A stretch of 64,000 nt of DNA from an uncultured Bacilli bacterium. GTDB lineage: Bacteria > Bacillota_I > Bacilli_A > RF39 > UBA660. Under the pieces are notes generated by a model. It searched no databases and had not been told where the DNA came from. It saw nothing but the letters and a program-made list of their open reading frames with translations. Below are positions 29,556 to 53,318 of this stretch, in pieces (position 1 is the first letter of the stretch; every line of letters begins with the position of its first letter). The DNA is taken from the NCBI GenBank assembly GCA_948479395.1, contig CAOLUI010000002.1, positions 1,282 through 65,281 on the forward strand, read 5' to 3'. The position numbers and the translations under genes are program-made.

Positions 29556-29776
29556 AATTCTACATTGAAGCTGCCCCCTGAAGACAGCTTCTAAAAGAAT
29601 AAAAAGGGGTTGACTAGTGTGATACTAGCACCAATTCGCATTAAGTGAATTGGTGATATATATACTAATTGATAAGGCTATTTTTGTCAACATTTTTTTA
29701 ACAAAAATAAAAATTTTTTTAAATATACATTTGTTTTTGTTTTTGCTATAATTTGTTTATAACGAGGAGTTAAGTA

Positions 29777-31756
29777 ATGGAGTTAAAGGATTTAAAAAAA
29801 GTTGGGCCCAAAACAATAGAGTGTTTAAATAAATTAAATATTTATTCTATTGATGATTTAATTTTTTATTATCCTTATCGATATAATATTTATAAACCAG
29901 TTGATATTATAAAAGAAGATTTAACAGATACCATAACAATTAATGCTGTAATTGAGTCAATTCCTAAAATTGTTTATATAAGAAAAAATTTAAATCGTAT
30001 TTCTTTTCAAGCCTTAACGAATAATTTAGTGATTAATGTATCGATTTTTAATAGGGCTTTTTTAAGTTCTAATTTAAAAGTAGGAAAAAATATAATTCTA
30101 ATTGGAAGATATGAAAGAAAAAAAAATAATTTTGTAGCTAGTGATTTGAAATTTGGTTGGATTAAAGATTTAAAAATTGAGCCAGTTTATCATGTTATTA
30201 AGGGTTTAAAAAATACTAATTTAAATTCTTATATTGTAGAAGCTTTAAAAAATAAGCAGGAAGTTGTAGACTATGTTCCAGATTATTTAAATAATGCTTA
30301 TAATTTTATAGAAAAAAAAGAAGCGTTGGATTTTATTCATCAACCTTGTAATTTTGAACAAATAAAAAAAGCTAAGTTAAAGTTAATTTATGAAGAATTG
30401 TTTTTATTTATGTTAAAAATAAATTTTTTAAAAGTGGATAATGAAAAAATAAAAGGGTTACCTCGAAATTTTGATATGGAAAAAGTAAATGATTTTATAG
30501 ATAATTTACCATTTTTATTAACTCTTGATCAACAAAAAGCGATAATTGATTGTTTAAATGATCTAAGGAGTCAAAAAAGAATGAACCGATTAGTTCAAGG
30601 GGACGTAGGAAGTGGTAAAACTATTGTATCTATTGTTGTAATGTATGCTAATGCTTTGAGTGCTTATCAAAGTGCTTTAATGGCACCTACAGAAATTTTA
30701 GCAATTCAACATTATGAAAATATCAAAAAGTTGATGGGTATTTATAATATTAAAGTAGCTCTTTTAGTAGGAAATCAGAAGAAAAGTGAACGAAAGGAAA
30801 TCTTAGAAAAATTACAACGTGGTGAAATAGATATTATTATTGGAACTCATGCTTTAATTAGTGATAATGTCGAGTTTAAAAATTTGGGATTAGTTGTTAC
30901 AGATGAACAACATCGTTTTGGAGTAAATCAAAGAAATAATTTACATAATAAAGGGGTAAAACCAGATATTATTTATATGAGTGCCACACCTATTCCACGT
31001 ACTTATGCACTTACTATATATAACGATATGGATACTAGTATTATTAAAACAAAACCAAGCGGTAGAAAAGAAATTAAAACTTTTTTGAAAAAGGAAAGTG
31101 AATTGAAAGATGTTTTAAAGGAAATTTTAAAGGAAATTAAAAAGGGTCATCAAATTTATGTAGTTGCTCCAGCTATTAATGAAGAAAATGAAGAGGTGTG
31201 GAATGTCAATGCTTTAAAGAAAAGTTTTGATAAAGCTTTTTTGGAAAATGTTAAAATAAGTATATTACATGGTAAAATGAAGGCTCAAGAGAAAGAAGAA
31301 ATAATGCAAGCATTTAAAGCAGGAGAGATTAAAATTTTGATTGCCACAACTGTTATCGAGGTTGGTGTAGATGTTAAAAATGCCACAACCATTGTTATTT
31401 TTAATGCTGAAAGATATGGACTAGCTACATTACATCAATTACGGGGAAGAGTGGGAAGGAATGAAATAGATTCTTATTGTTATTTGATTAGTAATAAAGA
31501 TGTAGATCGCTTAAAAGTTTTGGAACAAAGTAATGATGGTTTTTATATTAGCGAACAAGATTTTTTGATGAGACGAGAAGGGGATTTATTTGGAACAAGA
31601 CAAAGTGGGGATATGGTATTTAAAATTGCGGATTTAAGAAAGGATTTTAAAATTCTTTTACAAGCTAAAAAAGATAGTGAAAAATTTTTAAAAGAAGGAA
31701 ATCATAAAGAGGCAAAATATATGAATATCTTGAATAATATTACTACTATTGATTAA
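29777..31756 (+). CDS. recG: ATP-dependent DNA helicase RecG
   Basis: Walker A GDVGSGKT and DEQHRFGV box, with an N-terminal wedge domain; 659 aa. Confidence 0.9.
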   Translation: MELKDLKKVGPKTIECLNKLNIYSIDDLIFYYPYRYNIYKPVDIIKEDLTDTITINAVIESIPKIVYIRKNLNRISFQALTNNLVINVSIFNRAFLSSNLKVGKNIILIGRYERKKNNFVASDLKFGWIKDLKIEPVYHVIKGLKNTNLNSYIVEALKNKQEVVDYVPDYLNNAYNFIEKKEALDFIHQPCNFEQIKKAKLKLIYEELFLFMLKINFLKVDNEKIKGLPRNFDMEKVNDFIDNLPFLLTLDQQKAIIDCLNDLRSQKRMNRLVQGDVGSGKTIVSIVVMYANALSAYQSALMAPTEILAIQHYENIKKLMGIYNIKVALLVGNQKKSERKEILEKLQRGEIDIIIGTHALISDNVEFKNLGLVVTDEQHRFGVNQRNNLHNKGVKPDIIYMSATPIPRTYALTIYNDMDTSIIKTKPSGRKEIKTFLKKESELKDVLKEILKEIKKGHQIYVVAPAINEENEEVWNVNALKKSFDKAFLENVKISILHGKMKAQEKEEIMQAFKAGEIKILIATTVIEVGVDVKNATTIVIFNAERYGLATLHQLRGRVGRNEIDSYCYLISNKDVDRLKVLEQSNDGFYISEQDFLMRREGDLFGTRQSGDMVFKIADLRKDFKILLQAKKDSEKFLKEGNHKEAKYMNILNNITTID

Positions 31757-31797
31757 ATATAAATTATAAAATATAATTTAATTAGATAGAGGAAAAA

Positions 31798-32415
31798 ATG
31801 AATAGATTAGATATTAAGAAAAAGGCAAAAGCTATTTTGAAAGAAAATTTTAAAGTGTTTTGGGAAGGATATTTAATTATTTTTGCATTATCTTTTGTAT
31901 TAAATTTAGGAATAGGATTAATTTTCGGTAGTTCCATGATTGGGACTGTTTTAAGTTTGGTTGCTTCATGTTTTTCAATGACTTTATCTGTTGGTTTTTA
32001 TTCTTATTTATTAAAAATGATTCGTAAGGAAAGTTTTTCACGAGAGGATATTTTTAAATTTATTAATAAAGTTTTGCCTATTATAGTAATTTCTTTATTA
32101 GTAGGGATATTTTGTTTTTTGTGGAGTATTTTGTTTATTATTCCTGGTATTATTGCAGCACTTAGTTACTCAATGGTATATTACATTTTTACAGAAAATT
32201 CTGAATTAACAGCTATGGATTATTTGGAAAAAAGTAAAAAAATGATGAATGGTTATAAGTTGGACTATTTTTTGTTTAATTTAAGTTTTATGGGGTGGAT
32301 GATTTTATCAATTTTAACTTTGGGTTTATTATTAATTTGGACTTTACCTTATTTTTCAATTTCACAAGCTTTATATTATGATGAGCTTAAGAAAAAAAAT
32401 GTTGATAACTTATAA
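31798..32415 (+). CDS. DUF975-family membrane protein
   Basis: 205 aa with 4 TM segments and the DUF975-like architecture. Confidence 0.5.
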   Translation: MNRLDIKKKAKAILKENFKVFWEGYLIIFALSFVLNLGIGLIFGSSMIGTVLSLVASCFSMTLSVGFYSYLLKMIRKESFSREDIFKFINKVLPIIVISLLVGIFCFLWSILFIIPGIIAALSYSMVYYIFTENSELTAMDYLEKSKKMMNGYKLDYFLFNLSFMGWMILSILTLGLLLIWTLPYFSISQALYYDELKKKNVDNL

Positions 32416-32475
32416 ATTTACAAAATCTGGAAGAATTTATTTGACAAAGTGCGTTTTTCATTATATCATTTTATT

Positions 32476-32590
32476 AGCATGATAGATATCATGCTAACCT
32501 TTCGAAACACTTTTACGATTTTATGTAAAAGTGAATCAACCAAAACCCCCTGAAGAGTAGAACGATTTAAAGTTCTGCTCATTTTTTTGG
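32476..32590 (+). ncRNA. Candidate small RNA (~115 nt) with a C-rich single-stranded motif; putative integration target of the island
   Basis: TTGACA(32441)-17 nt-TATCAT promoter; perfect 10-bp hairpin tagcatgata-GA-tatcatgcta (32475-32496); 9-bp hairpin cacttttac/gtaaaagtg (32508-32533); single-stranded ACCAAAACCCCCUGAAGAG; 9-bp terminator stem (32555-32580) plus U7. Its 3' portion recurs at the module junctions in the island. Confidence 0.45.
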
Positions 32591-32647
32591 CTTAAAATAA
32601 GGGCTTGTAAAAATTAACATTTAATAATTTTTCCTCTCAACTACCAA

Positions 32648-33793
32648 CTAACTACCAAAATCGACTATCGTAGGTTGAGGACAAGTTAGTTTATTTATAG
32701 TATTTACTGCATCACTAAGTTTATCTTTGAACATGTGAGTGTAGGTATCTAAGGTTTCTTCGATGGATGCATGACCTAAGAATTGAGATACAACTGCTAT
32801 ATTAGCATTGTTATTTATTAGTAAAGATGCACAACTGTGTCTAAAGTCATGTAATCTTATTCTTTTGATATTAGCATTTCTAGCAATTTCTATGTTCTTA
32901 TGCCTCATTTGATAGAAAGTTATAGGAATGAAATTTCCAAATATAAACCATTCATCATCAAACTCAGCAAATTGTTTCTGTTCTTCATATAATTGTTTTA
33001 AATCTCTAAAAAGAATTTCAGCAATAGGTAAAACCCTGTTGCTTTTTTGCGTTTTAGGTTTGGTTAATTCATAGTAGGTGGAATTTTCAGAGCCATGAGT
33101 TACTGCTTGTTTGGTAACTGATAATCTTTTATCACTCCAATTAACATCTTTCCATTGTAAGCCTCTAGCTTCACCTCTGCGAAGTCCGCAATAATATAAA
33201 GTTTCATACATACACTTAATTTGTAAGTTAGGTGCAGAAGATATAAATTGATTAAATTCTTCTAAAGTATAAAAGTCCATTTCTTTTTTTATATCTGATG
33301 CCGAAGTAAAAGGTTCCATTCTCCCATAAAACTTATTCATATTGAATCCATAGGTTTTAACAGCCCAATTAATGACTATCTTTAAAAACTTCTGAATTTC
33401 ATTTTTATAACTATTTGAAATGTCTACTTTCATCATTTCAGCTCTCCATTTTTGATAATGAATAGCATCCATATCTTTTAATTTAACTTTATCAAACATT
33501 CCAATATACTTAATTCTATCTCGATAAGTTTTTAAGGTAGAGTATCTTACAATATCTTTTTGAACCTCATAATATTTAGTGTATAACTCTTTGAAGGTCA
33601 TATTCATATCACCTTCAAAGACCTCAGACATTTTTAAATATTCTTTTTCAGCACGCTTGGCTTCTGCTTCCGTTTTGTATGCTTTAGAAAACTTTTTGCG
33701 TTTTTTGCCATCCAAACCGGTCTCCCAAACATACCAAATATATTTTCGACCATCTTTGGTCCATTTCTTTTCTTCTAATAGTCTAACTGCCAT
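32648..33793 (-). CDS. int: Tyrosine site-specific integrase (IME module 1)
   Basis: C-terminal catalytic box HDFRHSCASLLI...LGHASIEETLDTYTHMF (R..HxxR..Y), plus an N-terminal SAM-like domain. Confidence 0.9.
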   Translation of the reverse strand: MAVRLLEEKKWTKDGRKYIWYVWETGLDGKKRKKFSKAYKTEAEAKRAEKEYLKMSEVFEGDMNMTFKELYTKYYEVQKDIVRYSTLKTYRDRIKYIGMFDKVKLKDMDAIHYQKWRAEMMKVDISNSYKNEIQKFLKIVINWAVKTYGFNMNKFYGRMEPFTSASDIKKEMDFYTLEEFNQFISSAPNLQIKCMYETLYYCGLRRGEARGLQWKDVNWSDKRLSVTKQAVTHGSENSTYYELTKPKTQKSNRVLPIAEILFRDLKQLYEEQKQFAEFDDEWFIFGNFIPITFYQMRHKNIEIARNANIKRIRLHDFRHSCASLLINNNANIAVVSQFLGHASIEETLDTYTHMFKDKLSDAVNTINKLTCPQPTIVDFGS

Positions 33794-33888
33794 TATAATT
33801 CCTCCTTTGCTTAGTTTAGACTATTCACGCACTTCAATTGGTAGTTTACCATATTTAGTAGTGTTCTCCAATAGAAGTGCTGATAGTT

Positions 33889-35367
33889 CTATCTTTCTAT
33901 TTCAAAATCCTCTTTATTTTTATTGTTTTTACCATAATAACCATGATTAATAGCATCTGCTATAACTTCATAATCTTCTAATCTTTCTTTAGGCTTATCT
34001 CGTTTTAATACTTTGTCTATTGCCTTACACATTTTTTGGAATAGATTTTTCCACTTATTAACTTCGGTTTCTAATTTAGATTTTAAACTCTCAATATTAT
34101 TATTCAAAATATCTACTAATTCACTTAATTTACTAATTTCCTCTTTTTGCTCTTGGATAGTAGATTTTTGCTCTTTAATAATCTCGTTTCTTTTTAGGAG
34201 TTCTTTATTGTTTTTAAAAGTCTTATTTTCTTCAGTCAGTTTATTTATTTCTATATCTTTATTGGTATTATCAGTAGATAAGATAATTATCTTATGCTCT
34301 AAGCCTCTTGTGTACTTTATGAATCTAAGAACATCATCATCTTTATATCCACCAAATTTTCTTTTAACAGGATTTAAAATTTCTTTGTTACTATCATTAT
34401 TTTCGATATTTTTAAGCCCATTTTTAGAGTTTTCTATAATCTTTAAGGTATTTTCCTTTTCTTTGTTTAATTCTTCTAATTCGGCTTTTTTCTCTGCTAT
34501 ATCGTAATCTAATTTAGTTTGATTTTCTTTATTACTTCCAATATCTCCACGATAGAGATTAAATCCTTTTTCAGTAATAAACTTATTGAAGTCATTTTGC
34601 ATTTGATGAAAAGATATTTTGCCACCTCTATCTTTCCAAAATTGATCACAATTCAAGAAGTTACCTTTGACTTCTTCATATACAATTTTTCCTTTATCAT
34701 CACGAAGTAATTTTGGATTAATAGTAGTAATACCTTTTTTATTTGTTGTTTCTTCTTTTACAACATTACCATTAGCATCTTTTACAAAGCACTTCCTTTT
34801 AACTTTTCTAACAACAGGAACAAAATAGGCTTGTAGGTGAGGTGTATCTTCATCATAATGAATTTGAGCAAGAAGTATATTTTCTTCACCTACATAGTTC
34901 TTTAAAAACTCCATACAGGAATCAAAAAAGTAAGTTACAGCATTTGGTATATCTTCCTTTGATTTTATAACAGGAATCATTACAGCTTGTCCTTTTTTAT
35001 CTCCTGTATGATAAGTTCTACCACTATCTTTAAATTTCATTCCAAGTGCTTGAAAAAACTCAGGACCACTTGTGAATGTTACACCATTTAATAGATTAGT
35101 GTTAGGTCTATCTAGATATTCAATTTTTCTATCCTTTAACTTCTTTTTGACTTCTTGATATAAGTTGTTTTGAGTAAGAGATACATATTCATAATTAAAT
35201 TCTCTTCGTTCAATATCATAATTTCCTGTACCTTTTCTATCCTTCATTTCAACACCGATATTATAAAGGTCTGCTTTCTTATATTGGGTTACTACTCGTA
35301 CTACTTGTTTGCCATCATACAATTTTTTATCCTCCTTTGCTTCTGTGTCTTTAGTAGTAGAGGTCAT
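33889..35367 (-). CDS. mob: MobV-family (Mob_Pre / MobM-like) mobilization relaxase (module 1)
   Basis: HxDExxPHxH motif (HYDEDTPHLQAYF) and an N-terminal relaxase fold, with a long coiled-coil C-terminus. Confidence 0.8.
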   Translation of the reverse strand: MTSTTKDTEAKEDKKLYDGKQVVRVVTQYKKADLYNIGVEMKDRKGTGNYDIERREFNYEYVSLTQNNLYQEVKKKLKDRKIEYLDRPNTNLLNGVTFTSGPEFFQALGMKFKDSGRTYHTGDKKGQAVMIPVIKSKEDIPNAVTYFFDSCMEFLKNYVGEENILLAQIHYDEDTPHLQAYFVPVVRKVKRKCFVKDANGNVVKEETTNKKGITTINPKLLRDDKGKIVYEEVKGNFLNCDQFWKDRGGKISFHQMQNDFNKFITEKGFNLYRGDIGSNKENQTKLDYDIAEKKAELEELNKEKENTLKIIENSKNGLKNIENNDSNKEILNPVKRKFGGYKDDDVLRFIKYTRGLEHKIIILSTDNTNKDIEINKLTEENKTFKNNKELLKRNEIIKEQKSTIQEQKEEISKLSELVDILNNNIESLKSKLETEVNKWKNLFQKMCKAIDKVLKRDKPKERLEDYEVIADAINHGYYGKNNKNKEDFEIER

Positions 35368-35379
35368 TTATTGACCTAT

Positions 35380-35440
35380 CTCACTAGGGCATAGCCCAAT
35401 CGTCAGTTTAAGGGTTCACCCTTAAAAATCCCAAAATAAT
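35380..35440 (-). other. Candidate oriT of module 1
   Basis: Block tgacctatctcactagggcatagcccaatcgt, identical to the one upstream of the second mob gene. It contains the gggc-ata-gccc inverted repeat and is followed by the perfect palindrome ttaagggt-tc-acccttaa. Confidence 0.5.
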
Positions 35441-35502
35441 CACTATCGCCACTTTCATTGCTTTGCAACAAAACGTGCCTCGTTCTTATTTTTAGAAGAT
35501 GA

Positions 35503-36459
35503 TTATTCATCATCTTCGAGGTTAGGTTCTTCATATATACAATGATAAATTCTTTTATCACTTGTTCTGCTCTTAGTTATATAAAGTCCTTCTCTTTGTA
35601 ATAAATCCATATTTGCATTTATCATTCTTCCGAATCGTAATGCTGTTGTTTTTAATTTAGCATCATGAATTATACTAGTAGGAGTAAATTCAAAGTCTTT
35701 CTTTAACGATACATATTTGATAAAGAGTATTAAGTTCTCATCAAGTTCATCATCTTCAACAGGATTACTTATTTTAAAGGTTTGATTTTCGTTTCTTTTT
35801 AAATCCATATCAAATCCAGGAAAATCTCTATTAATTACTTTCATAATTAAATGATTATGGTCATTTCTAGTTTCAAACAAAGTTATTTTCCCATCTATAC
35901 AAGCATCAAAAGCTGTACTACCTAATGTTTCATTTCTTTTATTTAAGTGATGTGTAAATAATATTGTGAGATTATATTTCTCACATAATTCTCTTAACTT
36001 AGGTATTAACTTTTGTGCTACATCTTGAAAATCATTTATATCGTAAGAGATACCTAAATCCATATCTTTAAGCATATCAATGATTACTAATTTATTTGCT
36101 GTTTTATCACCTGAAAAATCATCAATCTCTTCTTCATGGTCAAGTATGCTTATATTAGGTTTTCCATCTCTATCTATAATGAATAAAGAATCCTTTTTTG
36201 GAGTTAGACCTAGTGTTTTATAGCGGTCCTGTAATTGACCAAAATCGGACTCTGTGCTAATATATAAGACAGGTGATGGAATTACTTTGTGTCCTAAAAA
36301 TGGTAATCCATTGGTAAGACAGTAGGAAAGTTGCAGTGCCAACATAGACTTTCCTACTTTAGGTTTTGATACAAGTAAATAAACACCTTTAGACCTCATT
36401 AATCCTTCGATTATGATGTCTTTTTTTGTGCTTGTATCTAATTCTTCAATTAGTTTCAT
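35503..36459 (-). CDS. AAA_25/RepA-like P-loop ATPase (putative replication or helicase-loader protein of the IME)
   Basis: Walker A SKPKVGKSM and Walker B LVIIDM; paralogous to 45794..46741. Confidence 0.6.
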   Translation of the reverse strand: MKLIEELDTSTKKDIIIEGLMRSKGVYLLVSKPKVGKSMLALQLSYCLTNGLPFLGHKVIPSPVLYISTESDFGQLQDRYKTLGLTPKKDSLFIIDRDGKPNISILDHEEEIDDFSGDKTANKLVIIDMLKDMDLGISYDINDFQDVAQKLIPKLRELCEKYNLTILFTHHLNKRNETLGSTAFDACIDGKITLFETRNDHNHLIMKVINRDFPGFDMDLKRNENQTFKISNPVEDDELDENLILFIKYVSLKKDFEFTPTSIIHDAKLKTTALRFGRMINANMDLLQREGLYITKSRTSDKRIYHCIYEEPNLEDDE

Positions 36460-36463
36460 ATCG

Positions 36464-36697
36464 TTATCCTTTCTTTATTCTAGATTCTAAATAACTAATA
36501 TTAATATCTAAATAATCTACAACTTCTTTCATAGGTACTACATGCTTTGGAACCATATAGCCTTGTTTGGTTAGTTTCTCTCTAATGTTTCTTTTAATCT
36601 TTAGAGCAGAGTTCCTACCAACTTGGCTAATCTTCATTAAATCTTCTAAACTACACCATTGTTTTGAAACGATTTCTAAAGTTTCCTCAGCAGTCAT
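36464..36697 (-). CDS. Small DNA-binding protein (excisionase/HTH-like)
   Basis: 77 aa and basic; it sits at the conserved position upstream of rep and is paralogous to 46754..46993. Confidence 0.4.
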   Translation of the reverse strand: MTAEETLEIVSKQWCSLEDLMKISQVGRNSALKIKRNIREKLTKQGYMVPKHVVPMKEVVDYLDINISYLESRIKKG

Positions 36698-36716
36698 TTT
36701 ATCCCTCCTTTCTATT

Positions 36717-36806
36717 TTGTAAGGTTAACCTTACAATTCTATTATGCAATAATTAAACTTTATTGTCAAGAAAAACTTACAAAATTGTTGTGAAAAACTT
36801 ACAGGA
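36717..36806. promoter_or_regulatory. Divergent control region of module 1: 20-bp perfect palindrome plus direct repeats
   Basis: Palindrome ttgtaaggtt/aaccttacaa at 36717-36736; direct repeats gaaaaacttaca at 36771 and 36795; extended -10 tgatataat before the XRE gene. Confidence 0.45.
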
Positions 36807-36863
36807 TATGATATAATGAATTTGGGATGATATTATACCCTAATAAACGAAGGAGTATTTTAT

Positions 36864-37388
36864 ATGGATAAAGAACTTACTTTAAAAGCTTTAATAGAAG
36901 GTGGAAGAGATGTAAAGAATTTTTCTCAAAGAGAACTAGCAAGAAGAATCGGTTTGAGTAATACATCTTTAAATGATCTTGAAAATGGAAAAGTTAAAAA
37001 GCCTGATATAGAGGTATTAAGAAAGATTGCTGAAGAACTTGATTTATCTTTAGAACAATTATTAAAAGCAGCAGGATATGATGCTTTAACAAATTGGTTT
37101 TCTAATGATGAATTTAAAAATAAATCTTCTAGAGATTTAAAAAATATTATTAAAGAAGCAAGAATTTTTAAATATGATATTTTGGATTGGGATAGCAATA
37201 AAAGAGAAGTAGCTAGACATGTAATGGAAAACTTAGATAGAGTAGCATACAAATTAGAACTAATAAGAGATAATAAAGGAATAAATTATACATTAGATCA
37301 AGCAATAGAAGATATTAAAGAATCGTTAAAAGATTTAGAAGATGTTGCTAAAAAATATGATTATAGCAAATTGCCTAAAGATGTGTAG
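36864..37388 (+). CDS. XRE-family HTH transcriptional regulator (module 1)
   Basis: HTH motif QRELARRIGLSNTSLNDLENGK. Confidence 0.75.
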   Translation: MDKELTLKALIEGGRDVKNFSQRELARRIGLSNTSLNDLENGKVKKPDIEVLRKIAEELDLSLEQLLKAAGYDALTNWFSNDEFKNKSSRDLKNIIKEARIFKYDILDWDSNKREVARHVMENLDRVAYKLELIRDNKGINYTLDQAIEDIKESLKDLEDVAKKYDYSKLPKDV

Positions 37389-37406
37389 AGAGTAGGAGGA
37401 AAACTA

Positions 37407-38096: not shown

Positions 38097-38105
38097 GAGG
38101 ATTGT

Positions 38106-38669
38106 ATGGAAGTTTTAAAAGCAATAGAAGAAAGAAGAAGTATTAGAGCATTTAAGAGTGATGAACCACCCAAAGAAATTATTGAAGATATACTTAATTG
38201 TGGGAGATTAGCACCATCTGCTAAAAATAGGCAACCTTGGTATTTTGTGATAGCAAGGAATGAGATTAAGGACAAGATAGCTGATTTAATGATTAATTAT
38301 ACACTTAATCATGATGATACTATTGAAAGAGCAAAAATAGGCTGTCCTAGTAGTGTTAATCCAACTGCCAATGTAATTAAACAAGCACCTATATTAGTTG
38401 TAGTATTAAGAGAAAAAAATGATAATTGGACAGTTGGAGATAATTTATCAATAGGTGCTTGTGTTGAAAATATTTGTTTAAGAGCAACAGATTTAGGTTT
38501 AGGAAGTTTATGGATAAGAGATACCGTTTATGTAGCTCAGGAAATAGCAGATCTTGTAAAACATGGTGATATGGAATTAAATTGTGCAGTAGCTTTAGGA
38601 TATGCTAATCAATCCCCAAAACAACGACCAAGAAAAAATTTAAATGAAATACTAGAATGGATTGGATAG
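38106..38669 (+). CDS. Nitroreductase family protein
   Basis: N-terminal RRSIRAF, PSAKNRQPW and a C-terminal dimerization region. Confidence 0.75.
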   Translation: MEVLKAIEERRSIRAFKSDEPPKEIIEDILNCGRLAPSAKNRQPWYFVIARNEIKDKIADLMINYTLNHDDTIERAKIGCPSSVNPTANVIKQAPILVVVLREKNDNWTVGDNLSIGACVENICLRATDLGLGSLWIRDTVYVAQEIADLVKHGDMELNCAVALGYANQSPKQRPRKNLNEILEWIG

Positions 38670-38675
38670 ATAAGT

Positions 38676-43008: not shown

Positions 43009-43013
43009 TGTGC

Positions 43014-45647: not shown

Positions 45648-45679
45648 TTTTTATCCTCCTTTGCTTATGTTTCTTTAGT

Positions 45680-45745
45680 AGTAGAGGTCATTTATGACCT
45701 ATCTCACTAGGGCATAGCCCAATCGTGAGTTTAGGGACACGTCCC
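45680..45745 (-). other. Candidate oriT of module 2
   Basis: Same 32-bp block as module 1 (tgacctatctcactagggcatagcccaatcgt), followed by the palindrome tagggac-ac-gtcccta. Confidence 0.5.
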
Positions 45746-45793
45746 TAAAAACCCTGAATATTTTTTGTTCGCAAAAAATATATAATATAAATA

Positions 45794-46741
45794 TTAATAA
45801 TTAATCATAGGTTCTTCATATCTTGCAATATAAACTCTTTCATTAGATGTTCTTTTCTTTGTGATATGCAAACCTTCTTTTTCTAAAGTAATTAAATTAT
45901 TATTTAGTAGCTTACCAAATACTGATGGTTGTATCATTAAACCTAATGTACTGGTAATTTCAGATATAGTAAAAGAGAATTCTTTTTTCTTAATAGCATA
46001 ATTCAAAAATATTTTTAACTCGTTACTTAATTCTTCAATTTCCTCATTAACTACTTCAAATATTAAATTCTCTTTTCTTTTTAAAATAAAATCTCGACTT
46101 TCATAATCTCGACTTTGATAATTAAAATAAATTTTATCTTTTAAATTATTATCTAATTTTAAAGTGATAATTCCATCTACAGCACCATCAATAGCAGTAC
46201 TACCTAATGTAGTATTTGTTTTATTTAGATGATGAAGTAACAATACAGTAATTCCATACTTAGAGCATAATTTTCTATATTTAGGTAATACTATTTGTGC
46301 CATATCTTGGTAATTATATAAGTCAAATTTATCATTTATATAAACTCCATTAAACATATCAATTATTACAAACTTACCTTGATTGATATTAGCAAATTCA
46401 CTAATCTTTTCTTCTAAATCATCTAGGTTTAATTTCTTTTTATCTGATTCTTGTTCTATTAAAAAGAAATTGCTATTAAACTCTAAACTCATTTTCTTAA
46501 TACGATCAGCAATTTGCGAAGAATCCATTTCTGTGCTAATATATAAGACAGGTGATGGATTTACTTTAAATCCTAAAAATATTGTTCCTGTTGCAATAGC
46601 ATGAGCAAGTTGTAGAGCTAATAATGACTTGCCCACTTTAGGACGAGCAACTAAACAATATAAGCCATTAGATTTCATAAGACTATCAACTATGAAATCT
46701 TTTTTTGTGCAATTATTTAGTATTTCATTAATTGTTTTCAA
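45794..46741 (-). CDS. AAA_25/RepA-like P-loop ATPase (module 2)
   Basis: ARPKVGKSLLALQL Walker A and IIDMF Walker B; paralog of 35503..36459. Confidence 0.6.
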   Translation of the reverse strand: MKTINEILNNCTKKDFIVDSLMKSNGLYCLVARPKVGKSLLALQLAHAIATGTIFLGFKVNPSPVLYISTEMDSSQIADRIKKMSLEFNSNFFLIEQESDKKKLNLDDLEEKISEFANINQGKFVIIDMFNGVYINDKFDLYNYQDMAQIVLPKYRKLCSKYGITVLLLHHLNKTNTTLGSTAIDGAVDGIITLKLDNNLKDKIYFNYQSRDYESRDFILKRKENLIFEVVNEEIEELSNELKIFLNYAIKKKEFSFTISEITSTLGLMIQPSVFGKLLNNNLITLEKEGLHITKKRTSNERVYIARYEEPMINY

Positions 46742-46753
46742 ATTTTCTCCTTT

Positions 46754-46993
46754 CTAATTAATTCCTTCTTTTGACATCTTTTGAAGATAATTAATATTAA
46801 TTTTTAAATAATTCACAACTTCATTCATTGGCAACAATTTACTAGGTAATTGATAACCTTTGTTTAACAAATTAATTCTAATTTCACTTTTCAATTTAGA
46901 AGCACTATTTTTGCCTAAACCTGTAAGTTTTCTTAAGTCATTTAAGTCACACCATTGTTTAGAAATCAAATATAATGTTTCTTTTGCGGTCAT
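46754..46993 (-). CDS. Small DNA-binding protein (excisionase/HTH-like, module 2)
   Basis: 79 aa; paralog of 36464..36697 (MTA.ETL...SKQWC.L.DL). Confidence 0.4.
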   Translation of the reverse strand: MTAKETLYLISKQWCDLNDLRKLTGLGKNSASKLKSEIRINLLNKGYQLPSKLLPMNEVVNYLKININYLQKMSKEGIN

Positions 46994-47021
46994 TTATTCA
47001 CCTCACTTTCTATAACTAAAT

Positions 47022-47140
47022 GAGGTTCAAAAACCACTTATTTTTGAACCTCTCTATAATAATTATTACATATTTCTACTATATTAGTCAATATATAATC
47101 GTACAAAAAGTTCAAAAATAATAAAATTTATTGTTTTTAG
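47022..47140. promoter_or_regulatory. Divergent control region of module 2: 12-bp inverted repeat plus reiterated GTTCAAAA boxes
   Basis: gaggttcaaaaa-ccactta-tttttgaacctc at 47022-47052; additional gttcaaaa boxes near 47103 and 47128. Confidence 0.4.
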
Positions 47141-47157
47141 GTTCAAAATAGTATATA

Positions 47158-47706
47158 ATGAATATACGAGGTGTTTTTATGGAAGATCAAACTGTTGGTA
47201 TGTTAATAACAGAAGCTAGAGAGAAAAAAGGAATATCAAAAAATCAACTAGCAGAGTTATGTGGTGTAAGTCATACTGAAATAGCAAGAATTGAATCTGG
47301 AGAACGAGAAGTACCAAATCCTAAAACTTTAAGAAAGATAAGTAAATATATAGATGTAAACTTTAATGAATTAATGTATGCTGCTGGATTAGGTTTACAG
47401 CTTGGCCCTGAAAGTTCTTTATTAAAAGAATATCATTCTAGTTTAAGAGGTCCAAAATTAAAAGAAGCATTGGTAAATGCTTTCTGTAGTTTACAAAACT
47501 GTAATAAATTTGAAGAATTTTTAAAAAAGAAGTTAGAAGATAAAAAGTTATCAGAAGAAGAAAAAGAAATTGTTAGACAAACAAAAGAAGATAATTTTTA
47601 TCAAATTCTTACTATTTACGAAACTATAAACCAATTACAAAAAGCTTTAAGACATGAAAAAGTTGAGAATACTGATGAAGATAGTTTATTAGAAAATGAC
47701 AAATGA
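47158..47706 (+). CDS. XRE-family HTH transcriptional regulator (module 2)
   Basis: HTH motif QLAELCGVSHTEIARIESGER. Confidence 0.7.
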   Translation: MNIRGVFMEDQTVGMLITEAREKKGISKNQLAELCGVSHTEIARIESGEREVPNPKTLRKISKYIDVNFNELMYAAGLGLQLGPESSLLKEYHSSLRGPKLKEALVNAFCSLQNCNKFEEFLKKKLEDKKLSEEEKEIVRQTKEDNFYQILTIYETINQLQKALRHEKVENTDEDSLLENDK

Positions 47707-47771
47707 CAGATAGATAAGGGGACCTATATTTTAATGTCATAGTGTCATAGATACAAAGAGGTGATTAAAAA

Positions 47772-48299
47772 ATGGAAATTACTTTATTAAGACATGCTGA
47801 AAGTGAATATAATAAAATAGGATTATTGCAAGGTAGAATAGATTGTAATTTAAGTGATGAAGGTATAAGGCAAACTAGAGAAAGAGTTAAATCATTTGAT
47901 AGTAGTAGTTATGATGTATGTTTCACATCACCATTAAAAAGAACTCTATTAACAGCTCAAATATTAGTTCCTAATTTACCAATTATTTGTGATGATCGTA
48001 TTATCGAAAGAAGTTTAGGTGACTGGGAAGATACACCAACATCTGATGAAAAGAAATTTTTATTAAATAATATTAATTCAACTCCACCTAATGGGGAATC
48101 AACTTTAGAAATAACAAAAAGAGTTGAGAACTTTGTTGAATTCTTAAAAGATAACTATAGTGATAAAAGAGTTCTTATAGTTACTCATGCTGGAATTGTT
48201 TATGCAATTCAAGTAGCACTTGGTTTAGAAGTGAAACCTATAAACAATTTAGAAACATTAACTATTGATTTAGAAAATAAACACCAAATAAAAAGATAA
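47772..48299 (+). CDS. Histidine phosphatase superfamily (phosphoglycerate mutase-like) protein
   Basis: N-terminal LLRHAES RHG motif and a downstream catalytic His (VTHAG). Confidence 0.7.
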   Translation: MEITLLRHAESEYNKIGLLQGRIDCNLSDEGIRQTRERVKSFDSSSYDVCFTSPLKRTLLTAQILVPNLPIICDDRIIERSLGDWEDTPTSDEKKFLLNNINSTPPNGESTLEITKRVENFVEFLKDNYSDKRVLIVTHAGIVYAIQVALGLEVKPINNLETLTIDLENKHQIKR

Positions 48300-48318
48300 A
48301 ATATAAAAGGAGAATATT

Positions 48319-49158
48319 ATGGTAAAGGAAACTGAAAATTTAATTGAAATTTATAAATTATCTGATGAAGAACATAAAAAAGTTTTAGAATGTCTTAAAA
48401 ATAATTTATTTATTGGTAAGGTATCAGGAAAAACTCCATCAATAGTATTTGTTATAGGTCAGCCAGGTAGTGGTAAAACTACTTTTATAGAAAATTCCGA
48501 TTTATCTAATTATTTAATTATTAATTCTGATGAGTATCGTTATCTTAGCAAATATTCTAAAGAAATTTTATCTAAATATCCAACTCAGTATGCAAAACTT
48601 ACAAATTATGATGCACACTTATGGGGTGATGAATTATTTGATTATGCAATACAAAATGGATATTCTGTTTTGAGAGAAAAGGCTCCAATTGATTTTAGTT
48701 TATTAGAACTAATTAAGACTATATCAAATAATTTCAAAGTTATAATAAATGTGGTTGTTGAAGGAAATTTGGAAAGTTTATTAAGAACCAGAGAAAGATA
48801 TGAAAAAGAAATACTAGAAAACAATAATGCAAAATTATCCAGTATTGAAGCTCATAATAATTGTTATAACTTATTACCAACCTTTATATCGATGTGTATA
48901 TCACTTGGTATAAAAGTTAATTATGTTGTAAAAGGAGATATAATTTTGGCTTTAAATAATCCTCTAGAGCTATTACAAAATATTAGAGCAGAGAGTAATG
49001 AAAAAGCTAGTCTTAATTATAAAGAGAGAATAGATAAAATTAAAGAATCTATGATAAATAGAAATGCACCTGAAGATCAGTTTAATGAACTTCAGAAAAT
49101 TGAAGATATATATATTCAGGTAAATGGTGTTAATAACAATAAAATATCTAAAAAATAA
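48319..49158 (+). CDS. P-loop kinase, zeta-toxin/AAA_33-like
   Basis: Walker A VIGQPGSGKTTF near the N-terminus, as in zeta-toxin-type kinases. Confidence 0.5.
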   Translation: MVKETENLIEIYKLSDEEHKKVLECLKNNLFIGKVSGKTPSIVFVIGQPGSGKTTFIENSDLSNYLIINSDEYRYLSKYSKEILSKYPTQYAKLTNYDAHLWGDELFDYAIQNGYSVLREKAPIDFSLLELIKTISNNFKVIINVVVEGNLESLLRTRERYEKEILENNNAKLSSIEAHNNCYNLLPTFISMCISLGIKVNYVVKGDIILALNNPLELLQNIRAESNEKASLNYKERIDKIKESMINRNAPEDQFNELQKIEDIYIQVNGVNNNKISKK

Positions 49159-50112
49159 TATAATGAAAGCGAGTGAAATTATGAGAAAAGCATATTCTGT
49201 AATTACAAATTTTAGTGATGAAGCAATTAGAATATTAAAAGATAATAATATTGATTTGACAATAAGAAATTCTGAAGTTGTTCCTAATTCCGAAGAATTA
49301 ATTACTTTACTTCAAGAATATGACATTATAATAATTGGAGTAAAAACTATTGTTAAAAAAGAAATTCTTGAACATATAGATTCTCATAAAGTAATAGCAA
49401 CTTTATCTATTGGATTAGATCATATAGATAATGAGGTAAAAAAATCTAATTTAGTTACAGTTTTAAATATAAAGGATGCTAATACAGTTTCTGTAGCAGA
49501 GCATATTTTCTCCTTTATCCTTTCGCTTAATAAAAGAATAACAGAATCAAATGACTTGGTATTACAAAAGAAAGGACATAAAAAGAATTTGCATGAAAGA
49601 CCTGAAGATATAAGTGGTAAGAAATTAGTTTAATAGGTGCAGGAAATATCACAAAAGAAGTTATAAAAATAGCTAAAATATTTAATATGGAAATATCTTG
49701 TTTTACTAGAACTCTTCATAAACACAACGATTTATTAAATTTAGGAATTAATTTTAAAACCTTAGATGAAATATTAAAAGAAAGTGATATTATTAATGTA
49801 AGTATTCCTTTAACAGATGAAACTAGAAATTTAATATCTAAAGATAAGATTGATTTAATAAAATCAACAGCAACATTTATTAATACTTCTAGAACTGATA
49901 TAGTAGATACAAAAGCATTAATAGAAAAGGCAGATGAATATAATACTTTCTATGTAGGACTTGATATAGATTTAGGTGGGTATGAAGAAATATTTTCTAA
50001 ATTTAGAAATAATGTGATTGTAACTCCTCATATAGCGGGTGTATCAAAACAAGCTATAACAAGAATGGATAATGAACTTGCAAACAAGATTGTAAAAATA
50101 GTTAGGAGATGA
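49124..50112 (+). pseudogene. D-isomer-specific 2-hydroxyacid dehydrogenase, disrupted by a -1 frameshift
   Basis: ORFs 49124..49633 and 49687..50112 are the N- and C-halves of one dehydrogenase. The GxGxxG NAD motif is split: ...GKKLV* then IGAGNITKEV in the next frame. Restoring one G near 49629 gives GKKLGLIGAGNI. Confidence 0.6.
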
Positions 50113-50116
50113 TGGT

Positions 50117-51235
50117 ATGAATCTAAATGAAATAAATCAAAGAATTAGTGATAGATTAGATTGCTTTTATTGGCAGACGGATAGAAAAATAAGTGCTAAA
50201 AAAGCAGCCATGATATGGAAAGATAGACATTCTGCTATAACTAATGAAGAATTGTTAGATATGATTAATGCAGAATTAAAAGAAGATAAATTAGCATACA
50301 TCAAACCATTTGATGAAAATGCCCAAACAAGTTTAGGAAATGTAAATTCAGTAAGAGTTGGAGTTTTAGAAAGTGGAAAAGAGGTAATAATAAGATGTCA
50401 TCCAAAAGGTATAAGAAATGGTTATTTCTATGCTGAAAGTTTAGCCTCTCAAATTGCATTAAAAAATGGACTTCCTGCTTATAAAACTTATTATATTCAC
50501 GAATTAGAAAATGAAAGTGATATCTCTTATCAAGTTATAGAGAAATTAGAGGGGGATACAGTTCAATTTAGTTTAAAAGAACATCCTGAAAATGAAGAAC
50601 AACTTGTTATTGAAATGGGAAAAACTATGGCAAGACTTCATAAAATAAGAGTTAATGGATTTGGTCCTTTTGATAATGAACAAGCTAAGAATGGTAATTT
50701 AAAAGGGTTACATAAATCACTAAAAGATTCAATAAATGCAGGATTAGAAGAAAATCTTGAAAGATTAGTTACATACAATATTTTAACCAAAGAAGTAGCA
50801 GATAAAATGAAAAAACTATTTGATGATAACGAATTACTTAACTCAGATACATCAGTTTTAATTCATAATGATTTTGCTGATTGGAATTTATTAACTGATG
50901 GTAATACTATAACAGGTATTATAGATTGGGATGAATGTGTTGCAGGAAATCCTATTCAAGAAATAGCTTGTTGGTCAACATTCTTTGATCCAGAAAGAAT
51001 CAAACCATTTTTAAAAGGATATTTTAGTGAAACAGCAGTATATGATAATTTTGATGAGATGTTTCAATTAATGAGATTAAGATATACCATTTCAAAAATG
51101 GCTTTAAGAATCAAAAGATACACATATGAGCAAACACCATTTTTAAAAAGTATGATTGAAAAGGGAGAAAAACATTTAGAAGAGTTATCAGAAATATTTA
51201 ATCTTAATGAAAATATTAATATTCAGAATAAATAA
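50117..51235 (+). CDS. Phosphotransferase enzyme family (APH/choline-kinase-like) protein
   Basis: Catalytic loop HNDFADWNLL and metal-binding IDWDE, typical of APH-fold kinases. Confidence 0.65.
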   Translation: MNLNEINQRISDRLDCFYWQTDRKISAKKAAMIWKDRHSAITNEELLDMINAELKEDKLAYIKPFDENAQTSLGNVNSVRVGVLESGKEVIIRCHPKGIRNGYFYAESLASQIALKNGLPAYKTYYIHELENESDISYQVIEKLEGDTVQFSLKEHPENEEQLVIEMGKTMARLHKIRVNGFGPFDNEQAKNGNLKGLHKSLKDSINAGLEENLERLVTYNILTKEVADKMKKLFDDNELLNSDTSVLIHNDFADWNLLTDGNTITGIIDWDECVAGNPIQEIACWSTFFDPERIKPFLKGYFSETAVYDNFDEMFQLMRLRYTISKMALRIKRYTYEQTPFLKSMIEKGEKHLEELSEIFNLNENINIQNK

Positions 51236-51247
51236 AGGAGGAAAATT

Positions 51248-51613
51248 ATGAATAAGGAAAAATATGAAAGTTGGACAAAAGAATTTATGGAATCTTGGAA
51301 AGAATTGGATTGGGAAAGAACTTTAAATACATTAGATAAAAATGTTGAATATTATGAAAATCCAATCGATAAACCATGTAGTAATTTTGAAGAAGTAACA
51401 AACTTATGGAATGTCGTTGCTGATAATCAAAAAGATATAGATTATAAGTTTGAAATTGTTGCTTTTAATGAAAATACTTGTATTATTAATTGGCAAATGA
51501 CTAGAGTAATGACAAAAATAAATGAAAAACAAGAAATTGATGGTATATTTCAAATCTCATTAAATAATGAGGGTAAATGTACATATTTTAAACAATGGAG
51601 ATTTACAAGATAA
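51248..51613 (+). CDS. NTF2/SnoaL-like small protein
   Basis: 121 aa with an alpha+beta barrel-like pattern; weak assignment. Confidence 0.3.
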   Translation: MNKEKYESWTKEFMESWKELDWERTLNTLDKNVEYYENPIDKPCSNFEEVTNLWNVVADNQKDIDYKFEIVAFNENTCIINWQMTRVMTKINEKQEIDGIFQISLNNEGKCTYFKQWRFTR

Positions 51614-51772
51614 TTAGTTAATTAAAAATTAAAATTTTAGGTAATAATTAGGTATTAAAATTCTAGATTTTTATTAAAATTTTCTAATTATTATTAATTA
51701 AAAATAAGCAAAATTAAACTAAAAATAAGGGAAAAGTGAAAAATTGTTTCAAAAAGAACTGAAAAAATTTCG

Positions 51773-51810
51773 CCCCCTGAAGAGTCAGCGAAAGCTGGCT
51801 CACTTTTATT
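51773..51810 (+). repeat. Partial copy of the sRNA 3' end / att-like motif
   Basis: cgCCCCCTGAAGAGtcagcgaaagctggctcacttttatt. Confidence 0.5.
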
Positions 51811-51899
51811 ATTATAAAATCTTAATATGGTAAAATCCTAAGAAAAATTTACTAGATATGTTATAATTATTTTAGAATGAATGAAGAAGTTAAGATAGT

Positions 51900-52040
51900 T
51901 GGCAAGAATCATTAAATAATAAATCTTTAAACGATCTTGAAAAAGGAAAATTGACCAAAAAGGACAATATGAGAAATCAGCAAATTTTGACTGATGTCAA
52001 GCCGCTTTTATATATGGATCATTAGGATGTAAAAAATGTA
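51900..52040 (+). pseudogene. Remnant of an XRE-family regulator gene (third, decayed module)
   Basis: Translates to ESLNNKSLNDLEKGKLTKKD..., homologous to the SLNDLENGK segment of 36864..37388. It lacks the N-terminal helix and a start codon. Confidence 0.45.
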
Positions 52041-52139
52041 TGAAACTTAGTCGAGAATAGGATGGCAAATTAAGCAATATAACAAAAGAAAAGTTTACAT
52101 AAATGTAAAAAGTTTGATTAGTATATAGGAAGTAAAAAT

Positions 52140-52650
52140 ATGATAATACAAATAGATATAGATAACACACTTACAGATATTGAAGATGATTTAATGAATG
52201 CGGCATTTGATTATGCAAAAAGTTTAAATAAAACTATAAATACTAATCGTTTAGAATCAATGGATGATAACAATGATGGAAATAAATATCAAAAAATATT
52301 TGCTTTTAATTATGAAGAACTTAAATATTTTTTAAAAGAGATATAAGAAAGAATTACTGATAAAGATAAACCAAGATACTTAGCTTCAGAAATAATAGAA
52401 TTACTTCATTTAGAAGGGAAAAAAATAATTATATTACAACAAGATATTTAGAATTTCATGATAATCCATATAAACAAAGTGAAATGTGGTTAAAAAAGAA
52501 CAATATTTATTATGATAAATTAATTGTTAATGTTAGAAAAAAAGGTGAAATTTGTAAACAGGAAAAAATAGATTTATTTATAGATGATAATATTAGTAAT
52601 TGTTTAGATGTAACAAAATATGGAATAAAAACAATTATCTTAAATAAGTA
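52140..52650 (+). pseudogene. 5'(3')-deoxyribonucleotidase (NT5C-like HAD) gene, frameshifted
   Basis: The N-terminal HAD motif IQIDIDNTLTD is in ORF 52140..52346. The C-terminal half (EMWLKKNNIYYDKLI...IDLFIDDN) is readable only in another frame at about 52430-52650. Confidence 0.5.
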
Positions 52651-53277
52651 AAAAATAAAAGATAATATGATAGTATCATTCGATAATTGGAAAGATATTT
52701 ATGATTATATAAAAAATGAAGGTGAATAAAATATGATTATGTTTTAAAATTAGGGTTTGATAAGAAATAGAAAATTATATTCAAAATATTAAAAATACTT
52801 CATAAGAAAATAATATATCAGATAAAGAAAAAATTGGAGACTAATATCACTATTTATATATTTGTGAAGTAGAAGACAAAAGTCCAGTGAAAGGACTATT
52901 AAAAAAAAATAGATAGTAAATTAAAAAAATAATAAGTTAAATATGACAAAGAAAATTTGGAAATATTTCCTTAAACTAAGCGTTATGATTGTCACTTATA
53001 AAATTGATTAGTCGCGACAAATCAATTTGAAAGAAATAGTCGTGTATGAAGAAATTACTGAAAATTTAGAAGAGCAATTAGCAGATAAAGAACTATTAGA
53101 AATAAAAAAGCATATTGTTCATCTTAGGTTTTTTTTAGGACTATACGTATCGATAAAAAATAAATGTAAATTTTGATGAAATTAAATTAAAGATTCTTAT
53201 TTTTATGTAACTATTATAACAATTTTTAAAACTTTAAAATTATATTTTTAATCAAATAAACAAATTAAAATTTAATA

Positions 53278-53318
53278 CCACCTGAAGAGTCAACAAAATC
53301 TAGCTCATTTTTTTTTGA
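53278..53318 (+). repeat. Divergent copy of the sRNA 3' end / att-like motif (possible attR)
   Basis: taCCACCTGAAGAGtcaacaaaatctagctca followed by T9. Confidence 0.45.

Follow-up and report, generated by a model that had tools for sequence, protein, structure and literature searches.

In Firmicutes, integrative mobilizable elements (IMEs) that combine a tyrosine integrase with a MobV relaxase are known, for example IMESag-rpsI and Tn6215 (PMC5704250; Coluzzi et al., PMC5357655). Site-specific accretion into tandems of IMEs, cis-mobilizable elements (CIMEs) and integrative and conjugative elements (ICEs) is also known, including for streptococcal IMEs; a CIME is a remnant of an IME or ICE that has kept its attachment (att) sites and lost its integrase and transfer genes (PMC5704250; PMC5357655). 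In enterobacteria, phages and islands integrate into the genes of tRNAs, transfer-messenger RNA (tmRNA) and small RNAs (sRNAs), with ryeB and ryeE cited as sRNA genes targeted by phages (PMC3603311). Here we describe an 11-mer, CCCCCTGAAGA, that recurs at five sites in an uncultured Bacilli bacterium (assembly GCA_948479395.1, contig CAOLUI010000002.1, positions 1,282 to 65,281; this whole stretch of 64,000 nt is the window, and all coordinates refer to it). These five copies are two different things: copies 2 to 5 are serial att sites, and copy 1 is part of another RNA. We consider it very probable that, taken together, they reflect a stack of IMEs and one decayed element at the 3' end of an sRNA gene, here called sRNA-A, and that copy 1 is the complement of the terminator of a second sRNA, sRNA-B. 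Unlike in the Firmicutes IMEs, the target in the window is a small-RNA gene, not a tRNA or protein-coding gene, and the host bacteria, low-GC gut Bacilli or 'Tenericutes', are uncultured and represented solely by metagenome-assembled genomes (MAGs).

With at most one mismatch, the 11-mer was found five times in the window, on the plus strand every time. Three copies are exact (copy 1, 29574-29584; copy 2, 32546-32556; copy 4, 51773-51783), copy 3 (41127-41137) reads CCCCCTGAAGG with G as its last base, and copy 5 (53278-53288) reads CCACCTGAAGA (CCACC...). The G+C content of the window is 24% and G strongly exceeds C on the plus strand, so that an 11-mer containing five consecutive C residues is very improbable; dinucleotide shuffling gave an expectation of 0.16 matches, and none of 100 shuffles reached five. 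A sequence-only reading of the same DNA had claimed that the motif recurs at five sites more often than by chance, which these counts bear out. Its positions were correct for copies 1 to 4, and copy 5, which it had placed at 53280, starts 2 nt earlier.

Copies 2, 3 and 4 are the junctions of two elements, IME1 (32556..41136; 8,581 bp) and IME2 (41137..51782; 10,646 bp), which form direct att repeats and show a precise presence/absence difference between strains. The two elements stand in tandem exactly at CCCCCTGAAG. Copy 2 is the attL of IME1 (32546..32558, plus strand) and has, besides the core CCCCCTGAAG, the 13-mer CCCCCTGAAGAGT in common with copy 4. Copy 3 (41127..41152, plus strand) is both the attR of IME1 and the attL of IME2, its core CCCCCTGAAG being followed by a terminator supplied by IME2, GGAGCGCATAGCGCTCC. 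Copy 4 (51773..51801, plus strand) is the attR of IME2, composed of the core and the terminator GAGTCAGCGAAAGCTGGCTC; in strains that carry neither IME1 nor IME2 it is this terminator that completes sRNA-A.

The strain difference was seen in same-species contigs from other samples, found by a look-up with the DUF975 protein encoded next to sRNA-A. In four metagenomic contigs from four samples (L003, L005, L006 and L007), sRNA-A is joined directly to what the window has after copy 4, and both IMEs are absent. Left of core 2 these empty-site contigs are free of mismatches to the window for 2.8-5.7 kb, and right of core 4 for 0.9-5.2 kb; they lack exactly 19,227 bp (8,581 + 10,646), the two sides overlapping in the 13-mer CCCCCTGAAGAGT. 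Three contexts were found for the right end of IME1, which is the same in all of them as far as ...GAACTCTAACCG-CCCCCTGAA, and the neighbour changes exactly thereafter: it is IME2 in the window, the terminator GACGACCGAAAGGTCGTC in GCA_951801365.1, and an element with a different integrase in the third. IME1 with a 100% identical integrase also sits at the same position of a slightly different sRNA-A with other genes upstream. In all junctions compared, the only sequence common to every copy is CCCCCTGAA(G), which places the crossover within these 9-10 bp.

Just inside the ends of each element lie element-specific repeats that are plausible arm-type integrase sites. In IME1 these are two direct repeats of AACTACC within the left end (32639..32656, plus strand) and two within the right end (41001..41019, plus strand), and the four sites, starting at 32639, 32650, 41001 and 41013, are the only ones on the plus strand of the window. 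In IME2 the repeat TTTAGGTAATAATTAGGTA is found at 41195 and 51636, as TTTAGGTAATAATTAGGTAAT inside the left end (41195..41215, plus strand) and as TTTAGGTAATAATTAGGTATT inside the right end (51636..51656, plus strand).

The sequence-only reading had described the copies as att core repeats left by successive integrations. This stands for copies 2 to 5, given the empty-site boundaries inside the motif, the three neighbours of the IME1 right end and the arm-type repeats; it does not hold for copy 1, and it missed that the integration target is a conserved sRNA gene. The flanks that it had ascribed to copies 2 to 5 alike are also shared in part only. A hairpin with a T-run follows copies 2, 3 and 4 directly, and copy 5 has a decayed hairpin that does not qualify as a terminator; the upstream AAGTG...AACC is present at copies 2 and 3, is represented by a distant AAGTGAA at copy 4 and is absent at copy 5. 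As in the Firmicutes IMEs, the insertions lie at the 3' end of a conserved gene, which they do not inactivate, and direct att repeats flank the elements. The tandem resembles IME accretion in that two distantly related integrases (46% identity) have one specificity and a decayed CIME-like member keeps its att sites. It differs from the Firmicutes IMEs in that the identity segment is only 9-13 bp long, and the displaced 3' part of the gene is replaced by a non-homologous terminator, not by a duplicate.

The target gene, sRNA-A, occupies 32441..32590 on the plus strand, and was recognized by its structure, promoter, covariance model and conservation. Its promoter (TTGACA-17-TATCAT, 32441-32469) matches at 11 of 12 positions and is the best sigma-70-like match of the region, with a predicted RNA from about 32476 to 32590. 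The unit of about 115 nt comprises two hairpins, the single-stranded segment AAUCAACCAAAACCCCCUGAAG, and a terminator (32555-32580) with a T-run, which in the window belongs to IME1; the single-stranded stretch near the end, UCAACCAAAACCCCCUGAA, is invariant and is followed by the terminator, and the motif forms the last part of this stretch. The fold has a z-score of -7.4, and the covariance model finds a single full sRNA-A in the window (32474-32554, 75.5 bits). No match to Rfam was obtained at gathering scores over the whole window, and at E <= 10 the region 29300-32700 gave chance-level matches only (E = 0.57-8); ARAGORN called no tRNA or tmRNA. We also searched the window for G-rich ribosome-binding sites complementary to the sRNA-A seed, and found none that was convincing, and a full-text literature search with the conserved sequence strings returned unrelated primer matches only.

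All four loci found through the neighbouring DUF975 protein (77, 57, 46 and 39% identity) carry sRNA-A, with the 19-mer TCAACCAAAACCCCCTGAA intact in each and both hairpins changed in sequence. A metagenome scan with this 19-mer found at least 120 contigs. The counts that follow, here and for the downstream regions, are among the matches listed, which include about 80 distinct versions. RNAalifold on a plain MAFFT alignment of 82 sRNA-A sequences gave no pairs, with the hairpins misaligned, and we used instead a covariance model built from a curated alignment of 22 sequences with a hand-set structure line, to which 100 matches (83 distinct) were realigned. Across the 83 distinct homologues, 94.9% of the cells are standard pairs, as compared to 71% in shuffles and 30-51% with slid partners; compensatory changes occur at all 17 pairs, and both sides have changed in 298 cells against 72 expected. 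A promoter-like sequence stands at a consistent distance in 67 of 79 versions, and a T-run follows a hairpin in 75 of 79. The gene is almost always found directly after recG, with or without the DUF975 gene between them. In a minority of loci (L026, L050, L052, L061, L063, L078, L081 and L121) recG lies downstream of sRNA-A on the opposite strand, in convergent orientation, so that the association of sRNA-A with recG persists despite differing orientation. By these comparative criteria sRNA-A is a real structured RNA with its own promoter and intrinsic terminator, and it is presumably expressed; it represents an undescribed RNA family, without an Rfam match and widespread in gut metagenomes.

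The integration target has a parallel in ryeB and ryeE: here, too, a structured non-coding RNA gene serves as attB, the crossover lies near its 3' end, the end is restored, and the site is a hot spot. Unlike at those targets, the elements in the window are IMEs, not phages (no match in viral contigs), the RNA family is absent from Rfam, and the crossover falls where the single-stranded segment meets the terminator, with an exchange of terminators as the result.

The hot spot was assessed in 71 metagenomic loci with at least 1.5 kb of sequence downstream of sRNA-A. A related integrase (about 40-58% identity) is encoded on the minus strand within 700 nt downstream in 12 of them and anywhere downstream in 19, and in 14 of the 71 the core occurs a second time in direct orientation, 0.2-10 kb downstream; in one of these loci, L042, the right-end sequence is the same as that of IME1. 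sRNA bodies that are unrelated to one another can be followed by identical terminators (GGAGCCGAAAGGCTCC and ATCCCAGCCGAGAGGCTGGGAT are examples), as expected if terminators travel with mobile elements.

These data also bear on an alternative that the sequence-only reading had offered, namely that the motif and its hairpin form a genome-wide family of intrinsic terminators or cis-regulatory elements that lie near mobile modules by coincidence. It is true that a terminator-like hairpin with a T-run follows each of copies 2 to 4. However, the motif is present at only 3 of the 17 terminator-like sites in the window (3 of 11 on the plus strand, none of 6 on the minus strand), each of the three being an att junction; the 64-kb window has no copies outside 29.5-53.3 kb and one full sRNA-A only. 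The metagenomic contigs carry the 19-mer once each and always in the context of the sRNA, with additional cores found downstream only and in direct orientation. Moreover, the terminators vary between copies, and yet the boundaries coincide with insertion and deletion breakpoints. On the evidence of the window and the metagenomic contigs we regard a terminator or regulatory family as extremely improbable.

Other features recur downstream of sRNA-A. A terminator with the following sequence ATCCCAGCCGAGAGGCTGGGATACTTTGTTTTATAAGGG is found behind clearly different sRNA-A bodies (e.g., in L013, L056, L076, L092 and L125), which suggests one widely disseminated element family. The motif TTATAAGGG(C/T)TT follows many element-borne terminators, including those of copies 2 and 3 in the window. 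In three loci (L090, L127 and L145) an inverted CCCCCTGAAGAG stands on the strand opposite to sRNA-A, about 85 nt downstream of it, and is followed by a shared AACAAAGTCTTAAT...; these may mark an element in the opposite orientation or a convergent gene. In L091, L104 and L126 the full 19-mer TCAACCAAAACCCCCTGAA is preceded by a shared AAAAAAGGGCACTTTT... and not by the sRNA hairpins, and these 19-mers are probably the attR or attP of another element family that has a longer identity segment with the sRNA.

Copy 5 stands at the end of a third, decayed element. The simplest reading of the 1,505 bp between copies 4 and 5 (51783..53287) is an older element that has lost its mobility genes and kept its att sites, that is, a CIME, and which may descend from an IME. 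It holds short fragments of open reading frames (ORFs) and a fragment of an XRE gene (18 aa), in which 51912-51950 is 87% identical to part of the xre gene of IME1; no integrase or relaxase was found in it. The remnant is present also in the strains that lack IME1 and IME2. The sequences around copy 4 and copy 5 can be aligned across the core, over 58 nt, with 72% identity. We read copy 5 (53278..53306, plus strand) as a putative relic attR, with one substitution in its core (CCACCTGAAG) and a decayed terminator hairpin, and it is possibly the oldest surviving 3' end of sRNA-A. Right after copy 5, at 53425-54701, lies a two-gene module that is present in all strains examined; it encodes a 101-aa protein with a weak match to the MqsR toxin (E = 0.002) and a 318-aa protein with helix-turn-helix (HTH) and SocA/Panacea domains (E = 5e-20).

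Copy 1 has a different origin. It lies, as the sequence-only reading had noted, in the loop of a GAAGCTG/CAGCTTC hairpin (29567-29591), in the spacer between PFOR (26184-29540) and recG (29777-31756), and this spacer is conserved across species. The hairpin belongs to a unit on the minus strand, the sRNA-B gene (29520..29690), of which 23 distinct homologues were found (e.g., L012 7473-7584 and L049 79-190). From a promoter at 29690-29662 (TTGACA-17-TAGTAT), the predicted transcript runs from about 29655 to 29520, and consists of two 5' hairpins, the invariant CAACCCCUUUUUAUUCUUU stretch, and the hairpin 29567-29591 with the top UCUUCAGGGGG. Over 36 nt the invariant sequence reads GCUAGUAUCACACUAGYCAACCCCUUUUUAUUCUUU, where Y is C in most homologues and U in the window; the top of the terminator reads (U)CU(C/U)CAGGGGG. 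The stem of the hairpin covaries and its top is kept, with CCCCCTG in 20 of the 23 homologues. All 23 have a minus-strand promoter, TTGACA-16..18-TAnnnT; on the minus strand 20 of them have a U-run after the hairpin, and on the plus strand none does; and positions that are not Watson-Crick pairs form G.U 41 times on the minus strand as against twice on the plus strand. Promoter, U-run and G.U signals all point to the minus strand, and the unit between PFOR and recG is therefore a minus-strand sRNA, whose expression is predicted from these features. No U-run stands right after the hairpin in the window, where sRNA-B probably ends at the bidirectional hairpin 29522-29553, overlapping the PFOR stop codon. 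sRNA-B has no Rfam match; of 36 suitable loci, 22 showed it upstream of recG.

Copy 1 is thus unrelated to integration, and is the plus-strand sequence complementary to UCUUCAGGGGG, the conserved G-rich tip of the hairpin that terminates sRNA-B. One could alternatively regard it as an att relic or a secondary site, in which case the segment from recG to the DUF975 gene (31798-32415) would be, or would have been, an inserted block. The exact identity of the 11-mer to the core speaks for this, as does the low probability of its chance occurrence on this strand (about 1e-4, an estimate from base composition), and there is a weak extra similarity, CCCCCTGAAGA..CAGC. But the order PFOR - sRNA-B - recG - (DUF975) - sRNA-A is conserved across species in which the DUF975 proteins are only 39-77% identical, and what separates copy 1 from copy 2 is a set of housekeeping genes in synteny. 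Beyond the 11-mer and the possible CAGC, copy 1 has no sequence in common with the other copies. Its hairpin, with a covarying stem and a conserved top, acts as the terminator of a minus-strand transcript, and upstream of sRNA-A, where sRNA-B lies, a search for integrase homologues gave one weak match only (25% identity, in L132). An origin of copy 1 as an att site is therefore very unlikely.

Why the same 8-11 nt should occur in sRNA-A and in the complement of sRNA-B has a further possible, if rather unlikely, answer, that the two RNAs pair. The complementarity extends over 11 nt in the window and 8 nt (CCCCCUGA/UCAGGGGG) in most other loci with both RNAs; for two conserved RNAs encoded 2-4 kb apart in AT-rich DNA, a chance origin seems unlikely. 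On this alternative, CCCCCUGA(AGA) of sRNA-A would pair with UCAGGGGG at the top of the sRNA-B terminator, one RNA being a sponge or partner of the other, and the integrases would merely exploit the most conserved segment of sRNA-A. The conservation of the hairpin top in 20 of 23 homologues above a covarying stem is in line with such pairing, as is the placement of the two genes around recG in many species. The expected duplex was predicted in two of three wild-type co-folds (the empty-site sRNA-A with sRNA-B, and the L049 pair), and a control with a mutant sRNA-B gained nothing; full-length RNAduplex runs of A against B returned long AU-rich pseudo-duplexes and were uninformative. However, the G-run of sRNA-B is itself predicted to be paired, in a wobble with UCUU, leaving only CAG open, and by prediction the heterodimer would gain only 0 to -3.9 kcal/mol net. 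Three variants of sRNA-B (L087, L079 and L081) have no G-rich top, the pattern search detected sRNA-B in only 22 of the 36 suitable loci, and the invariance of sRNA-A leaves no covariation with which to test the pairing. The G-run could also pair with sRNA-B's own CAACCCCU stretch, in which case sRNA-A would share with it a type of C-rich seed.

RsaE/RoxS are regulatory sRNAs of Firmicutes with a C-rich seed. By analogy, sRNA-A and sRNA-B may be compared with them: both are short, form hairpins, have an intrinsic terminator and leave a C-rich stretch unpaired (CCCCCU in A, ACCCCUUU in B). They gave no match to the Rfam RsaE family even at E <= 10. It is conceivable, though we think it rather unlikely, that sRNA-A and sRNA-B are an undescribed conserved pair flanking recG in uncultured low-GC gut Bacilli, in which the sRNA-A segment would pair over 8-11 nt with the sRNA-B top, one RNA would titrate or control the other, and the IMEs would swap the terminator of sRNA-A. 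If true, the arrival or departure of an IME could alter the stability or dosage of a host regulator.

Returning to the stacked elements, 32.6-51.6 kb holds two modules of identical architecture. On the minus strand each has genes for an integrase, a relaxase and an AAA_25 ATPase together with a small ORF, and its XRE regulator and cargo are encoded on the plus strand. IME1 encodes the integrase at 32648-33793, a MobV-like relaxase at 33889-35367, the ATPase at 35503-36459 and a 77-aa ORF at 36464-36697 (all minus strand), followed on the plus strand by XRE (36864-37388) and cargo (37407-40890: amidotransferase, nitroreductase, GNAT, MazG and UDG). In IME2 a retron-type reverse transcriptase (RT; 41776-42972, plus strand) precedes the integrase (43014-44069), the MobV-like relaxase (44205-45647), the ATPase (45794-46741) and a 79-aa ORF (46754-46993; these four on the minus strand), then XRE (47158-47706, plus strand) and cargo (47772-51613: histidine phosphatase, a zeta-toxin-like protein, an APH-like kinase and others). 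Between the two elements the integrases are 46% and the relaxases 85% identical, and the remaining three shared proteins 44%, 53% and 35%.

Both integrases belong, by their profile matches, to the tyrosine recombinase (phage integrase) family. That of IME1 matches the C-terminal catalytic domain PF00589 (E = 6e-26) and PF14659 (E = 1e-9), and that of IME2 matches PF00589 (E = 3e-27); both also match Xer-type NCBIfam models below the equivalog cut-offs, and the matches to Arm-DNA-bind_4 are weak (E = 0.001 and 0.009, below the cut-off). By inspection of a pairwise alignment, both have the catalytic residues R...HxxR...Y, in GLR(R/K)GE, HDFRHSCAS and LGH...ETL(D/N)TY(T/S)H. Recombination at the site would be catalysed by these two enzymes. 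The relaxases match Pfam Mob_Pre, and the NCBIfam MobV model over nearly the whole profile (E = 9e-24 and 2e-22). We searched 10 ORFs per element, including every ORF of more than 150 aa, against Pfam and NCBIfam, and found no family of conjugation-pore or coupling proteins; an integrase and a relaxase without such a match identify IME1 and IME2 as integrative mobilizable elements. Like the Firmicutes IMEs, they carry an integrase, a relaxase, a regulator and cargo, with no mating-pore genes among the ORFs searched. In comparison with those elements, the excision and mobilization of IME1 and IME2 are predicted from sequence.

Directly upstream of the relaxase genes is a 60-nt stretch that is 85% identical between the elements (35372-35431 in IME1, 45695-45754 in IME2) and holds short inverted repeats, GGGCATAGCCC and AAGGGTTCACCCTT. 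These stretches are candidate origins of transfer (oriT), and mobilization would proceed via the MobV-like relaxase and oriT. Over their first 48 nt the mob genes have 96% identity, as against 46% between the integrases, which suggests exchange of modules between IME1 and IME2.

The RT gene beside the integrase is cargo of IME2 and not a separate module; its product matches PADLOC RT_VI (E = 1e-48) and the NCBIfam retron St85-family RT (E = 3e-25), and upstream of it, from 41250, are a structured-looking region and a small ORF. Two further cargo proteins of IME2 are a member of the zeta-toxin family (48319-49158, E = 7e-20) and an APH-type phosphotransferase (50117-51235, E = 5e-21), which could be an aminoglycoside kinase or another small-molecule kinase.

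We propose the following mechanism for the origin of this array. The target would be the chromosomal sRNA-A gene downstream of recG and the DUF975 gene, in which the invariant stretch UCAACCAAAACCCCCUGAA is followed by an intrinsic terminator. A family of tyrosine integrases would use the 9-10 bp CCCCCTGAA(G), at the boundary of stretch and terminator, as the crossover core, and each IME would bring an attP in which its right end, the core, and a terminator hairpin and T-run of its own are joined. Because each element begins with its own terminator hairpin, the sRNA gene would always be complete: integration would leave it intact with a new terminator, and the previous terminator, with a copy of the core in front of it, would be pushed to the far end of the element. 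The old element would have integrated first and later lost its integrase and mobilization genes, leaving the remnant 51783-53287 with copy 5 as its attR. IME1 and IME2 would have integrated afterwards, in either order, into att sites of the array, giving sRNA-A/core2 - IME1 - core3 - IME2 - core4 - remnant - core5. We did not find IME2 without IME1, or IME1 directly before copy 4, in contigs of this species. Downstream of sRNA-A, L011 from the closest other species and the window have no gene in common, which leaves no basis for reconstructing the ancestral downstream state. The proposal predicts the attP junctions ...GTGAACTCTAACCG-CCCCCTGAAG-AGTAGAACGATTTAAAG... for IME1 and ...GAAAAAATTTCG-CCCCCTGAAG-GAGCGCATAGCGCTCC... 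for IME2, and a restored attB that would read ...CAACCAAAA-CCCCCTGAAG-AGTCAGCGAAAGC....

Several points weigh against the explanation by stacked elements and an unrelated copy 1. The MobV scores of the two relaxases, 84.5 and 80.5 bits, are below the curated NCBIfam cut-off of 100. No excisionase is recognisable, and the 77-aa and 79-aa ORFs match no family. Neither the 19-mer nor the predicted IME1 attP junction was found when viral contigs were scanned for them. The invariance of the 19-mer in L026-L145 is partly by construction, these loci having been found with that exact pattern, and the assignment of copy 5 as a relic attR is drawn from sequence similarity and position, with no intact partner genes. 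Finally, the 8-11-mer common to sRNA-A and the complement of sRNA-B finds no explanation in it. Set beside these points is what has been shown: where exactly the elements begin and end, that strains differ in having or lacking them, which genes they carry, and that the sRNA is structured and conserved.

The mechanism is classical site-specific accretion that has led to an IME-IME-CIME tandem, and the recombination itself is not new. What is new is an sRNA target that is absent from Rfam, a crossover at the boundary of single-stranded segment and terminator with only 9-13 bp shared, and a neighbouring sRNA with complementary sequence. The 24-kb stretch is a clean example of IME accretion with boundaries that are exact to the base pair, and the hot spot could be used for delimiting mobile elements in poorly annotated MAGs of low-GC gut Bacilli or 'Tenericutes'. 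It also adds two conserved structured sRNA families outside Rfam, one of them present in at least 120 metagenomic contigs. Among the cargo brought to this site are an APH-type kinase, a zeta-toxin-like protein and a type VI retron, and the site is thereby a route by which defence and resistance-like genes may enter uncultured gut bacteria.

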